NCBI GenBank assembly: GCA_014437165.1
Contig: GCA_014437165.1_4090.3
Length of the DNA stretch: 64,000 nt
DNA from: a phage
Reading direction: 5' to 3' (one strand)
Below the pieces are notes generated by a model. It was not told where the DNA came from. It saw only the letters and a program-made list of their open reading frames with translations, and did not search any database. Positions 42,517 through 57,737 of this stretch are shown here, in pieces (within the stretch, counting starts at the first letter, position 1; every line of letters begins with the position of its first letter). The position numbers and the translations under genes were made by a program.

Positions 42517-42740
42517 AACATTTAAGTAACTCCGAGAAGAATAAAATTATCATAGCTGCAATAAACAAATATTTTACACTTCCTCACAAAGAAGGTTTAT
42601 GTGTAAGGGAACACAGGATAAACACCACCGATAAACGCATGATGGCTGTACTGGGGACGAACTTCCAGGAAGAGTATGTTATTGCACACATAGTTGCACT
42701 CAAGAATTACATTATGGACAAATGTAATGAACATCATTAA
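42513..42740 (+). CDS. family B small protein
   Basis: LGTNFQEEYV…HIVALKNYIMDKC. Confidence 0.65.
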   Translation: MKHLSNSEKNKIIIAAINKYFTLPHKEGLCVREHRINTTDKRMMAVLGTNFQEEYVIAHIVALKNYIMDKCNEHH

Positions 42741-42951
42741 TAACTTTGAATACGAGGCCCGTGCTAAGAGTGCCAGAAAAAAAGAGAACACCATTTACTT
42801 CACTATGATGTACTTACAATGGACTGAAATTGAAGAAAAGGTTGCTGAAGTATGGATGTTGGAATTCATGGGGACGCAGTATCAGAATAGGTTTGCGGGT
42901 GAGTATATCAATGTTCTTATGAAACAAATAGAAAGAAAGGAAAAGAACTAA
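42727..42951 (+). CDS. family B small protein
   Basis: ATG 42727 (Met12 of track ORF); MGTQYQNRF. Confidence 0.6.
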   Translation: MNIINNFEYEARAKSARKKENTIYFTMMYLQWTEIEEKVAEVWMLEFMGTQYQNRFAGEYINVLMKQIERKEKN

Positions 42952-43109
42952 TGGTTTTCATTAACATATCTGACCAACTCGATACTAAACTAGAAGTCGA
43001 GCAGAGTGAGGGATGGATGCTGTACTTTCTTGGAACTTCTCATCAAAATTTTTATATCCATGAACACATAGTTGCACTCAAGAATTACATTATGGACAAA
43101 TGCAAATGA
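42951..43109 (+). CDS. family B small protein (52 aa; below track cutoff)
   Basis: TAATG junction; …LGTSHQNFYIHEHIVALKNYIMDKCK. Confidence 0.5.
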   Translation: MVFINISDQLDTKLEVEQSEGWMLYFLGTSHQNFYIHEHIVALKNYIMDKCK

Positions 43110-43363
43110 AATACTTAACACAAGATGAATATTCACTTAGAATTCGAAAGCTCACCCCAGAAGCAAGAGTAATCTACGATGACCCCACCCTTACATGGAA
43201 CCAAATGCGAGCTAAAGTTAATGAGCTATGGTTGCTGTACTTTATGGGGACTCAATATCAAGATAAGTTTTGCAAAGAATTTGTCGATCAATTAATGAAT
43301 GTTATACAGGATAAACTAGATGAATATTGGCTCGCAAAACATGAAGACTTTATCAGGAGTTGA
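43100..43363 (+). CDS. family B small protein
   Basis: MGTQYQDKF. Confidence 0.65.
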   Translation: MQMKYLTQDEYSLRIRKLTPEARVIYDDPTLTWNQMRAKVNELWLLYFMGTQYQDKFCKEFVDQLMNVIQDKLDEYWLAKHEDFIRS

Positions 43364-43592
43364 GTATCAAACTGCCCTCTTCTCTCTTATTAACACCCTT
43401 AGAAAAAACAATGCATTACATGGTGCACCTGAAGTGGATGTTATCAACGGTGATGTTTATCTTATGAAATTCATTGGAACAAACTATCAAGATCTGTTCA
43501 TTCAACGATACTTGGCAGCATTAAGAAACCAAATCCAATATAAAACCCAGAGAGCCAAAAAAGAATGGAATAAACAATGCGACAAAGACTAA
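43320..43592 (+). CDS. family B small protein
   Basis: IGTNYQDLF; alternative start 43341. Confidence 0.6.
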   Translation: MNIGSQNMKTLSGVEYQTALFSLINTLRKNNALHGAPEVDVINGDVYLMKFIGTNYQDLFIQRYLAALRNQIQYKTQRAKKEWNKQCDKD

Positions 43593-43825
43593 ATCACAAA
43601 ATGTATTGTAAACTATTGCAGACACTGGCACAGAAACACTATGACACGGTATCTGAAATATTACCCTATGATATCATGCGTTTACTTCACTGTGAGGCCG
43701 AGATGCTTGTACTGATGACAGGCACTGATAAAACAGCAATCGCCAGATCGATAGAGCAATATATTGATGCACACTGCCAACACATGAGAACCGAAATCTG
43801 GAGGAAAGAGAATGATAATTCTTAA
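43577..43825 (+). CDS. family B small protein (divergent, MTGTDKT)
   Basis: tandem position, same size. Confidence 0.55.
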   Translation: MRQRLNHKMYCKLLQTLAQKHYDTVSEILPYDIMRLLHCEAEMLVLMTGTDKTAIARSIEQYIDAHCQHMRTEIWRKENDNS

Positions 43826-44027
43826 TGAGTATCAGTATCATTGGAGGTTACAAACTATCAAATCAAAAGTGTATAGTATTGTGTTAAACAAATCTATTGC
43901 ACAAGAGGACAAATGTGTTATAATAGCTGAAATGAAGTTGGGTGTATTCGTAGGGACAAACTATCAAAACATCTACACTGACGTATTATTAAGTTCCTTA
44001 CGTAACAAGGTGGTATCCAAAATATGA
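43812..44027 (+). CDS. family B small protein
   Basis: VGTNYQNIY. Confidence 0.65.
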   Translation: MIILNEYQYHWRLQTIKSKVYSIVLNKSIAQEDKCVIIAEMKLGVFVGTNYQNIYTDVLLSSLRNKVVSKI

Positions 44028-44242
44028 GAAATTTACAAGGCTTTGAATACATCAGACTCCTGAAAACATGTGGAAGCAGAAGGAGAATGATATCAAGCGA
44101 TAAGAGCATCCAAGCTAACCTTAAGCACGCACTAGTAACTGAACTCTATGTAGGTGCACTCTTAGGCACAAACTATCAACAAATGTATGTAGATCTATGG
44201 ATTGACGCTCTACAGAAAGAGGTTAAAAGTAAATGCAAATGA
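44024..44242 (+). CDS. family B small protein
   Basis: LGTNYQQMY. Confidence 0.65.
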   Translation: MRNLQGFEYIRLLKTCGSRRRMISSDKSIQANLKHALVTELYVGALLGTNYQQMYVDLWIDALQKEVKSKCK

Positions 44243-44451
44243 TTAATTTAAGTAAAGACGAATTTTATGTTATACTGGCGAAAACTTATCCAGCACGTAA
44301 GGCCGTTTATGATAGTCACATTATTGAACCCTCAAAGAAGTTGATTTTAGTAAATGAGATAAAGATGCTTTCAGTCTTAGGAACAAACTATCAAGAGAAT
44401 GCTGTACTGATGTTAATTGATGCCCTCCAGCGAGAGGTTAAACGTAAATGA
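44233..44451 (+). CDS. family B small protein
   Basis: LGTNYQENA. Confidence 0.65.
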   Translation: MQMINLSKDEFYVILAKTYPARKAVYDSHIIEPSKKLILVNEIKMLSVLGTNYQENAVLMLIDALQREVKRK

Positions 44452-55680: not shown

Positions 55681-55870
55681 TGTATTATTATGTGATGGGA
55701 TAATGCTGATGAAAGAGTTATTTGAAGATCAGTTCAATACATATGTGGATAATATTCTTTATTCCAGCCGTGCTAGTCAACGAGGAAATCGTGCTTACAA
55801 TATAGATTACCTATTAGTGGTGCTGAGTTCACAGTACACCTACGCTGTACAGAGGACATATTATGAATAA
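55667..55870 (+). CDS. hypothetical small protein (67 aa)
   Basis: coupled ORF. Confidence 0.45.
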   Translation: MLMYDVLLCDGIMLMKELFEDQFNTYVDNILYSSRASQRGNRAYNIDYLLVVLSSQYTYAVQRTYYE

Positions 55871-56066
55871 TTTTAGAGATGTTGCTAAGGAGAAGTTCAA
55901 GTGCAGTTTAGATTTTGGGTTAAATGATTTTCTGACATGCACAATGTACAGGAATGATGATTATGAGCAATCCGTAATTTCGTTGCACAGATATTTCGAA
56001 ATAATTTACGCAAGATATCTTAGAAGGTTAGAGGGAATAGGGGATTGGAATTATGATTACGTTTGA
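55863..56066 (+). CDS. hypothetical small protein (67 aa)
   Basis: coupled ORF. Confidence 0.45.
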   Translation: MNNFRDVAKEKFKCSLDFGLNDFLTCTMYRNDDYEQSVISLHRYFEIIYARYLRRLEGIGDWNYDYV

Positions 56067-56277
56067 AGAGCCGGAAGTGGCATATTGCTTTAGTGTGAAA
56101 GGTTTTGAATTCATGATGGATTCTATTTTGAAGGATACATATTTGGTTCAGATTGCAGTTGCAGATAATACAGATAATGCATTACAGCGAGTATTGAATA
56201 TATACGAGAGGACGAGTCGAAGGCTTTGTGCAATGAAAAGGATTGAAGAAATCAAGGTTTCTAGGCTGAATAAATAG
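56053..56277 (+). CDS. hypothetical small protein (74 aa)
   Basis: coupled ORF. Confidence 0.45.
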   Translation: MITFEEPEVAYCFSVKGFEFMMDSILKDTYLVQIAVADNTDNALQRVLNIYERTSRRLCAMKRIEEIKVSRLNK

Positions 56278-56474
56278 AGACGTTTCATTTTGACAGGCCG
56301 CAGGGGGGGTCAAAAAAATTTCCGCTGAAAAACATGCTAAGGTATATGTTTAATATAAAGTTTTATATTGTGTTTTTCAGAGTACAGTTCATGTTTCCTG
56401 AAACAAAAAATACCCCGCCGCCGAACGTTCTCCTTATATTGGAGTTTACCTTATTAATTATAGTAGAGATTAAG

Positions 56475-56852
56475 ATGGAAATAAAATATAATGAATTTTG
56501 TGCAAGGACATGGATGTACACTGGTGAGTTAGTTACGCACTCTAACTTATACAAGGGTGATTTAAACTACGCTAGGGACAAGATTTTAAAGTACTGGAAT
56601 GCTGACTTTTATTTGATGGATTTTAGTACTGGGTTTAGGGGTAAAGCAACCGAGATGTTGGACTATACAGTACTTGATGATGCTGCACTGTTTCAGGCGG
56701 CATTAGTATTTGATAAGAAGTACATCTGTACATTAGAAGAGATGATTGAATTACAGCGTAGAATTAAATGTATTCACAGGGAATGTATAGATATCTGGTG
56801 CAGTACTGGTGAAGATGATTTTTGTAATCATTTCAATCTAGGGGAAGTGTGA
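56475..56852 (+). CDS. family C protein (…DDAALFQAALVFDKKYIC…)
   Basis: internal ATG 56475 gives paralog-length product; start uncertain. Confidence 0.45.
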   Translation: MEIKYNEFCARTWMYTGELVTHSNLYKGDLNYARDKILKYWNADFYLMDFSTGFRGKATEMLDYTVLDDAALFQAALVFDKKYICTLEEMIELQRRIKCIHRECIDIWCSTGEDDFCNHFNLGEV

Positions 56853-57013
56853 TGGAATTTGATTTTTTAATATCAGTACATTCTTTTAAGCACAGTTATC
56901 AGTACTTTTGTAATTTAAACAAAGGTGATTTGATTATGGATACAGATACAGAGGCTGTATACAGTTCTAATATTCTGTACAAATTCAGTACTAATCTGAA
57001 GGAGATTTTATGA
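56852..57013 (+). pseudogene. 53-codon 5' duplicate fragment of the 57381 gene (MEFDFLISVHSFKHSYQYFCNLNKGDL…)
   Basis: ~88-bp near-identical direct repeat 56850-56937 vs 57379-57466. Confidence 0.5.
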
Positions 57014-57381
57014 AAAAAGAAATTAGAATTCAATTCGGTATGAGGAAAAAAGAGGTCATCTGTACACTGAATCATGCGGTCGTGGAAAGCCTTGGTGGTG
57101 CATTACAAAAATTCTCCCATTTTGTTCTTGTACTATATGAAAATGGGTCTTTTAAAATCTTCACATATGATGATTCAAAAAATTACCGTAATGATTTTGT
57201 AAATCTGACAGTACTGTCAGAAGAGGAATTCTTTCAGGAAAGTACTGTCTGGAATTTACCAGGAGCACCAATTGAATACGTCCGTGCTACACAGGCAGAA
57301 ATGATCAAAGTAATGCAGAACTATCCAGAAGATTATATGACTAAGTTTCCTGAATCTATTTATGTAGAGGTTGAGTACTGA
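57010..57381 (+). CDS. family C protein (…SEEEFFQESTVWNLPG…)
   Basis: SD GGAGA; core motif. Confidence 0.65.
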   Translation: MKKEIRIQFGMRKKEVICTLNHAVVESLGGALQKFSHFVLVLYENGSFKIFTYDDSKNYRNDFVNLTVLSEEEFFQESTVWNLPGAPIEYVRATQAEMIKVMQNYPEDYMTKFPESIYVEVEY

Positions 57382-57737
57382 TGGAATTTGATTTTTTAAT
57401 ATCAGTACATACTTTCAAGCACAGTTATCAGTACTTTTGTAATTTAAACAAAGGTGATTTAATGCACAGTGCAAATGAGTATATTCATTACACTCAGGGT
57501 AAATTTACATTCATTGATTACAGTTCATTACAGTATCCACACCAAGATATGCCGGACTATACATTAATGGATACCGCAGAACTATTCCAAGAATCATTAG
57601 TATTTGATAAGAAGTACTTGTGTACATTTGAAGAAGTTATTGCAATACAAAATGAAATGAAAGAGTATGCTGCTTTGCATAAACCCAATGCAAGTATTAA
57701 TCAAGAATACAAATTCAATTTAGGAATTCAAGAATGA
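57381..57737 (+). CDS. family C protein (…TAELFQESLVFDKKYLC…)
   Basis: core motif. Confidence 0.65.
   Translation: MEFDFLISVHTFKHSYQYFCNLNKGDLMHSANEYIHYTQGKFTFIDYSSLQYPHQDMPDYTLMDTAELFQESLVFDKKYLCTFEEVIAIQNEMKEYAALHKPNASINQEYKFNLGIQE

Follow-up and report, generated by a model that had tools for sequence, protein, structure and literature searches.

The 64,000-nucleotide stretch of phage DNA analysed here (assembly GCA_014437165.1, contig GCA_014437165.1_4090.3; the whole stretch is referred to as the window) carries two head-to-tail arrays of small paralogous genes, arrays B and C, in which three pairs of direct repeats stand out. Besides these repeats, the window and its relatives exhibit insertion/deletion (indel) polymorphisms with exact breakpoints, hybrid genes and clustered substitutions. 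By far the most probable account of these features is that DNA within the B and C arrays recombines at short islands of homology between paralogues and also undergoes gene conversion over short tracts. The flagged repeats would be such islands, located at gene ends where recombination acted. Crossing-over or slippage between two copies would remove or add all that lies between them, leaving relatives that differ by one unit of 269, 378 or 529 bp and that carry a hybrid gene at the joint, and ectopic gene conversion over short tracts would copy 10-25 nt from one copy into the other. Such conversion would account for the perfect identity of repeats amid genes that are 25-74% identical. The machinery we infer is presumably made up of recombination or replication enzymes of the phage or its host; relatives encode a RecA-like recombinase and exonucleases (PMC11895373).

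Judged by its closest matches, the window represents the left-end accessory region of an Asteriusvirus (PBECO4/121Q-like) jumbo phage of E. coli. A megablast search with window positions 42-48 kb and 54-60 kb matched 36 phage records at 83-99% identity. All of them are Asteriusvirus jumbo phages of E. coli or Salmonella (PBECO4, 121Q, phAPEC6, G17 and others), and none of these 36 matches is identical to the window. In the list of open reading frames (ORFs), every long ORF of the arrays, from 41.5 kb on, lies on the plus strand, and this strand applies to all features of the arrays described below. Array B (41495-47651) consists of 27 head-to-tail genes of ~52-91 amino acids, typically ~70, that belong to phrog_4148 and carry the motif LGTNYQ; four further members at 48952-49406 and 62000-62387 bring the hidden Markov model (HMM) count to 31 in total. 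In the alignment only the positions LGT..Q are conserved, and the members share 17-47% amino-acid identity with the first member. Array C (47641-63898) comprises at least 26 genes of 100-207 amino acids from phrog_13866, 15629, 9317, 12674 and others. Its hallmark is an invariant FQ within EExxFQxSLVxD, its members are 12-40% identical to a reference member, and in relatives it runs on past the window end.

The repeats had been noticed from the letters of the window alone and interpreted as scars of recent duplication or recombination (the original prediction). All three are present, with small corrections to their extent. The first, given as a 37-bp junction at 44646-44682 and 44915-44951, is a maximal exact repeat of 38 nt with a spacing of 269 (44645-44682 and 44914-44951; pair 1). 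The second, a 37-bp segment placed at 42687-42723 and 43065-43101, has a maximal length of 39 nt and a spacing of 378 (42686-42724 and 43064-43102; pair 2), the predicted coordinates being shifted by one base relative to the string quoted with them. The third had been described as an ~88-bp repeat. A block of 85 nt was recovered at a spacing of 529 (56850-56934 and 57379-57463; pair 3), of which 82/85 positions are identical and the longest exact runs are 44 and 32 nt, but the last 3 of the 88 nt mismatch. Compared with the family background, the three repeats are extreme outliers. The longest common substring has a median of 9 nt and a 95th percentile of 15 nt among B genes (465 pairs), and a median of 10 nt and a 95th percentile of 13 nt among C genes (351 pairs). 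When match and mismatch columns were permuted inside the homologous blocks, the observed runs were matched in 2/20000 trials for pair 1, 0/20000 for pair 2 and 0/20000 for pair 3.

The clearest hybrid genes are associated with pair 2. Its 378-bp unit (42703-43080) contains the tail of a gene termed A, a gene B' and most of a gene C. Gene A (42513-42740) has copy 1 (42686-42724) at its 3' end, as the codons HIVALKNYIMDK, and copy 2 (43064-43102) lies at the 3' end of gene C (42951-43109), which is N-terminally short. Each copy contains a 17-nt core, ACACATAGTTGCACTCA, at 42686-42702 and 43064-43080, respectively, and in copy 2 the core is followed by a 22-nt tract (43081-43102) that equals copy 1. 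Apart from the shared 39 nt, the flanks of genes A and C are unrelated in register. Exactly 378 bp are missing in phAPEC6, SHEFM2K, BF17, E9.1 and CMSTMSU. These five genomes carry an A::C hybrid gene, A-like on the left and C-like on the right, with the switch located inside the 17-mer, ACACATAGTTGC(A/C)CTCA. The long form is found in ~10 genomes. In G17, CRJP21 and PBECO4 both genes are present and the copies share the 17-mer only, the next 22 nt differing from the window at 9/22 positions. In the window, the tract at 43081-43102 is flanked on both sides by C/D-type sequence. The occurrence of the 22 nt of copy 1 within copy 2, in the window only, thus bears what we take as the signature of a short ectopic gene-conversion tract. 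The 17-nt core is the site of a deletion/insertion polymorphism; on this comparison it would be old, and the exactness over 39 nt a private, recent addition. No record in the phage collection is ≥95% identical over gene C. In three genomes, BLAST placed part of the gene C query ~260 bp further away, in two joined pieces with a span of ~458 bp; in our reading, the tract in these split alignments matched copy 1, which lies 378 bp upstream.

No other record contains the 22-nt extension of pair 2, as would be expected if an assembly or polishing artefact, through collapsed or duplicated reads or mis-mapping between paralogues, had produced it. For the repeats in general such an origin, which the original prediction had named as the finding that would overturn it, is extremely unlikely. 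The 38-mers of pair 1 are also found in BF17, E9.1 and PBECO4, and pair 3 in phAPEC6, G17, SHEFM2K and BF17, all of them independently sequenced isolates from different laboratories. Moreover, long and short forms were both seen repeatedly, and only the extension of pair 2 is private to the window.

Pair 1 has a different anatomy. Copy 1 (44618-44682, with the exact 38-mer at 44645-44682) spans the 3' end of gene 44448-44678 (...NSIENKCKGN*), a ribosome-binding site and the ATG of gene 44680-44919. Copy 2 (44887-44951, with the exact 38-mer at 44914-44951) contains the out-of-frame tail RKLYLQTKE* of gene 44680-44919, a non-coding spacer, a ribosome-binding site and the ATG of gene 44949-45212; gene 44680-44919 is terminated within it by the TAG at 44917-44919. 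Homology in register extends over 44618-44850 and 44887-45119, which are about 74% identical and include the exact 38 nt at the left end. Pair 1 is therefore regarded, on its sequence anatomy, as the true scar of an out-of-register tandem duplication that would have carried along ~62 nt of the 3' end of the upstream gene, copy 2 being the scar proper. The carried piece of ~62 nt persists as a spacer, for the most part non-coding, from which the following gene takes its ribosome-binding site. The duplication is old, since it is shared by 19 genomes and the duplicates have diverged to about 74% identity.

The B gene of the 269-bp unit (44680-44919) is present in 19 genomes, which have the two-copy structure in common, and is missing in 121Q, UB, CMSTMSU, ph0011, fEgEco12 and others. 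A single copy of pair 1 is found in 121Q and UB; in 121Q the 38-mer of copy 1 is fused to the right flank of copy 2, so that the junction looks like a deletion hybrid. CMSTMSU and ph0011 likewise have one copy, of the copy-2 type and with the variant junction GTGAGGTTGATGAACATG. In about 8 further genomes (fEgEco12, Ecwhy_1, WPEC3, WPEC5 and others), the match is confined to the copy-2 part of the query, and gene 44680 appears to be absent.

The same variant junction constitutes copy 2 in G17, phAPEC6, SHEFM2K and CRJP21, with 4 changes relative to the window. G17 and the window are 99.5% identical over 1004 nt, and 4 of their 5 differences fall within 10 nt of copy 2 (44936, 44940, 44942 and 44945). 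These clustered bases represent a putative conversion tract, as all of them make copy 2 equal to copy 1. Exact 38-mers in both copies are also found in BF17, E9.1 and PBECO4. From the variant junction in the other genomes and from the clustering of the differences to G17, it is concluded that the last 16 nt of copy 2 were putatively converted to copy-1 sequence in the window, BF17, E9.1 and PBECO4. The exactness of pairs 1 and 2 alike is due to short clustered substitutions over older homology, which read as conversion tracts.

Exact stretches of this kind could also be functional elements that are held constant by purifying selection without any recombination, such as a ribosome-binding site, a start region, a conserved peptide or an RNA or DNA signal. 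In pair 1 the repeat does hold an AAGGG that resembles a Shine-Dalgarno sequence, as well as the start codon ATG of the gene that follows. Also in favour is a 46-nt exact repeat in array C (58411-58456, partner at 60250-60295), a case different from the three pairs, that was absent from the original prediction and encodes EVLEGPWDSEEYYFQ in two phrog_9317 paralogues. This 46-mer is nearly invariant, synonymous sites included, in 4-5 paralogues of every relative examined and flanks no indel; its identity may reflect constraint, repeated homogenisation or both. However, relatives function with other sequence at the places concerned, namely with the 4 changes in copy 2 of pair 1 (G17, phAPEC6, SHEFM2K, CRJP21) and with 9 changes in copy 2 of pair 2 (G17, CRJP21, PBECO4), and these changes fall into clusters while the DNA around them is 99.5% identical. 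Purifying selection also leaves unexplained why unit indels end exactly at the repeats. As a full account of the three repeats it is very unlikely.

The third unit, of 529 bp, is made up of a 54-amino-acid ORF (56852-57013) and gene Q (57010-57381, phrog_13866). The gene order is P1 (which ends at 56852), the 54-amino-acid ORF, Q, P2 and P3, where P1, P2 and P3 are all members of phrog_15629. Copy 1 of the 85-nt block (56850-56934) forms the 5' end of the small ORF and copy 2 (57379-57463) that of P2 (57381-57737), which is intact. The edges of the block are sharp, as it reaches from the TGATG stop/start overlap to just past the NLNKGDL codons. The unit is present in 12 of about 34 genomes. 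E9.1, PBECO4, CMSTMSU, UE-S1 and ph0011 show the order P1-P2-P3 with a single 85-mer, and in E9.1 the flanks of pair 3 are 99.2-99.3% identical to the window. In phAPEC6, G17, SHEFM2K and BF17 the pair is repeated with the same 3 mismatches. The two copies of 121Q and CRJP21 differ at 12 positions that are clustered in a 25-nt patch, which suggests a mid-block exchange between the copies in some lineages.

A sensitive blastn search with the 444 bp between the copies (56935-57378) found this segment once per genome in 12 genomes and no donor for it elsewhere in these Asteriusvirus genomes. An origin of the gene Q insert as a duplicate of a neighbouring or distant gene was rejected on these grounds, as the match is at this locus only and a donor copy is lacking. 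Because the 444-bp insert occurs nowhere else in any genome, Q is not a recent copy of anything.

The small ORF is P2-like over its first 28 amino acids, has a divergent tail and is an annotated coding sequence in relatives. In 121Q it is longer by 63 nt (21 codons), in frame, and keeps KEFQNS, a trace of the family motif. The extra 63 nt are bounded by a 15-nt direct repeat, TAAT(G/A)TTCTGT(G/A)CAA (121Q genome, L006, 16950-17045, equivalent to window 56965-56982), and the difference would reflect another small deletion between repeats, this one within the unit of pair 3. The ORF is best read as the remnant of a full-length C-family paralogue, chimeric and decaying, whose first 85 nt are of P2 type. 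This head would have been gained by conversion or crossover at the conserved NLNKGD codons, and in-frame deletions between short repeats would then have shortened the gene. The original prediction had stated that the ~88-bp repeat created a 5' gene fragment at 56852-57013. The ORF is real, but it was probably not created by the repeat, since it looks like an eroded chimeric full-length paralogue. The short form of the locus would arise from recombination between the two 85-mers, although insertion into an ancestral short form fits as well. Chimeric genes at the joints thus include the A::C hybrid, the pair 1 junction of 121Q and this remnant ORF with its P2-like head.

If each pair marked the ends of a freshly duplicated unit, as had been proposed, the arrays would now be expanding. 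The 269-bp period of pair 1, its in-register homology and the upstream 3' end that was carried into a non-coding position do fit a tandem duplication. Outside the 38-mer, however, the pair 1 units are about 74% identical and the duplication is found in 19 genomes, hence old. At pairs 2 and 3 the sequences between and beyond the repeats have 20-40% identity in register, which amounts to unrelated DNA, and no Asteriusvirus genome contains a DNA relative of gene Q at another site. The paralogues themselves are divergent, with 17-47% (B) and 12-40% (C) amino-acid identity to the first member. Recent duplication is therefore largely refuted for pairs 2 and 3 and is an unlikely account of the repeats as a whole. 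The accompanying view that unequal recombination expands the family was borne out in one respect, the change of gene number by recombination at these very sites: each repeat is the breakpoint of a variable indel of 269, 378 or 529 bp, even relative to genomes that are 99.2-99.5% identical in the flanks. Expansion as the net direction was not, as contraction and replacement are equally seen.

Variation of this kind extends over both arrays. Chained alignments of window 41-64 kb with seven relatives revealed at least 8 unit-scale indels or replacements in 23 kb, the indels of pairs 1-3 included. At 45204-45431 a cassette has been replaced: a single B gene (45209-45460) is found in the window and CRJP21, and two unrelated B genes (216 and 231 nt) in G17, phAPEC6 and SHEFM2K, between flanks that are 96-99.5% identical. 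Additional sequence is found in phAPEC6 and BF17 at 46.6 kb (206 bp) and in BF17 near 50.6 kb (577 bp; window 50536-50708). Gene 47951-48355 is absent from 121Q. A 362-bp gene that follows 63898 (63895-63901) in phAPEC6, G17, SHEFM2K and 121Q is missing in the window. Over the same interval, the number of B genes ranges from 26 to 32 and that of C genes from 25 to 27 (HMM count, 8 genomes). In the older records of CMSTMSU and PBECO4, about half of the small array genes are annotated compared with newer records on the same DNA, so gene counts taken from annotations are not comparable between genomes.

Long and short forms at pairs 2 and 3 are found in each of the four possible combinations. For this reason, either the events are recurrent or alleles are reshuffled by recombination between phages. 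Distant relatives were used as outgroups to fix the direction of the indels, but with conflicting signals and all four combinations present, no direction was assigned. Contraction and cassette replacement are as evident as expansion.

Several points weigh against the favoured explanation. The 22-nt tract at 43081-43102 was seen in the assembly of the window alone. The 17-nt core of pair 2 is below the length usually thought sufficient for RecA-type homologous recombination, and slippage or single-strand annealing may for that reason be the route at this pair. Selection on ribosome-binding sites or conserved peptides may add to the identity of the repeats, and likely does so for the 46-mer. The more distant relatives CMSTMSU, ph0011 and UE-S1 are all short at pair 3, which fits an insertion as well as repeated deletion. 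Finally, the distribution among genomes could have come about by the exchange of pre-existing alleles between co-infecting phages and not through separate new events in the individual lineages.

Evolution of tandem multigene families by unequal crossing-over and interlocus gene conversion (birth-and-death and local concerted evolution) is known from the multigene families of African swine fever virus and the terminal gene families of poxviruses. Similarly, the B and C paralogues follow one another head to tail, all on the same strand and close to an end of the genome, and their arrays vary in copy number, have breakpoints in paralogous homology and contain hybrid genes, short conversion tracts and eroded members. 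The B and C arrays differ from these families in that they belong to a bacteriophage, in the very small size of their genes (~70 and 100-200 amino acids) and in the very short homology used (17-85 nt). The mechanism is the textbook behaviour of tandem multigene families, of which the two arrays are a well-documented further example. Poxvirus 'genomic accordions' and the homogenisation of gene arrays (PMC6115191) share with the B and C arrays that copy number shifts by recombination and that conversion spreads variants between array copies. Accordions are transient and consist of near-identical copies of one gene under acute selection, whereas the B and C arrays are old, with ~12-47% protein identity to the reference member. 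For rapid expansion and contraction under selection, as in accordions, the evidence from the arrays is indirect and consists of indels that separate genomes 99% identical in the flanks. Because their copies are so divergent, the arrays are not an accordion of the poxvirus type.

In T4-type phages, promoter-early stem-loop (PeSL) cassettes mediate modular shuffling in hyperplastic regions (PMC2839356, PMC4122927). As with PeSLs, short conserved sequences at gene boundaries flank indels and replacements between close phages in the arrays, and small genes are affected. Unlike the intergenic promoter/stem-loops, the three repeats are made up of the coding ends of paralogues and of junctions at their ribosome-binding sites. 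A PeSL-like nature of the three repeats was rejected, as promoter-like sites are not in excess at 40-60 kb (107 found, 115 ± 11 expected). A more far-reaching proposal is that the arrays are a dedicated diversification locus and a coding counterpart of the PeSLs of T4. The dozens of genes would encode early host take-over or anti-defence proteins, and the islands at gene ends (17-85 nt and the 46-mer) would be kept as recombination linkers by which cassettes are shuffled, deleted and hybridised during co-infection. We consider this rather unlikely; if true, jumbo phages would gain a fast-evolving protein repertoire.

The position of the arrays in the genome follows from comparison with relatives. 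In vB_Ec-M-J, a feature annotated 'Direct Terminal Repeats' covers the equivalent of window 30-33 kb. The terminal repeat of fEgEco12 is 20,993 bp long (PMC13070987), and its B array begins at ~21.7 kb. On the basis of this annotation, the repeat length and the array start, window ~20.4-41.4 kb corresponds to the ~21-kb direct terminal repeat of relatives, and arrays B and C are the first genes past it. The genes of both arrays are tightly packed, and in many of them stop and start codons overlap. These overlaps and the lack of an excess of promoter-like sites indicate that the arrays probably form a few long operons, for which 41432, 48357 and 52339 are the positions of candidate promoters.

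Array proteins have no Pfam matches, and their confident structure models have no informative structural neighbour. The model of the array B protein is a four-helix fold (predicted local distance difference test, pLDDT, 97) and that of the array C protein an alpha/beta fold (pLDDT 87), in which the first helix to follow the beta-sheet has the FQ motif at its start. Early accessory functions, for example in host take-over or anti-defence, are inferred for the products of the array genes from where the genes lie, from their size and diversity and from how variable they are. The family motif E-E-x-(Y/F)-F-Q-x-S of array C (e.g. in 58103-58594 and 47641-47985) resembles the tobacco etch virus (TEV) protease site ENLYFQ/S. 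The likeness of EEYFQ(S/G) to this site was taken as a probable coincidence of a fold motif.

Neither the B and C arrays nor their copy-number dynamics are described in the Asteriusvirus or RaK2-like phage literature that was searched. The comparison provides a base-by-base view of how, in the largest gene families of a jumbo phage, members are gained and lost, form hybrids and decay, in a process that, to judge from phages 99% identical, appears to be still under way. About 80% of Asteriusvirus genes are without known function, and phages of this genus are under characterisation for therapy. Arrays B and C define a naturally variable set of ~60 genes in the window, for which natural deletion variants exist that can serve in tests of function. 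Annotation of this region should treat small ORFs such as 56852-57013 as paralogues in decay and should not make too much of gene counts that differ between isolates.

Further repeats are located outside the arrays. In many exact repeats of 35-66 nt at 21000-40100, a TTGACA-17-TATAAT promoter precedes a GC-rich hairpin (GGGGAGAA...TTCTCCCC); examples are found at 30099/32484, 37110/37604, 36812/40005 and 33788/33984/34252. They resemble the PeSL cassettes of T4 and are situated within the counterpart of the terminal repeat. Between 5500 and 16000 the minus strand has exact repeats of 24-49 nt, such as CATTCTTCCAAAAGGTAACATATTCCCTCCTTTAT, at a spacing of ~1.15-1.24 kb, which suggests another tandem array with units of ~1.2 kb.

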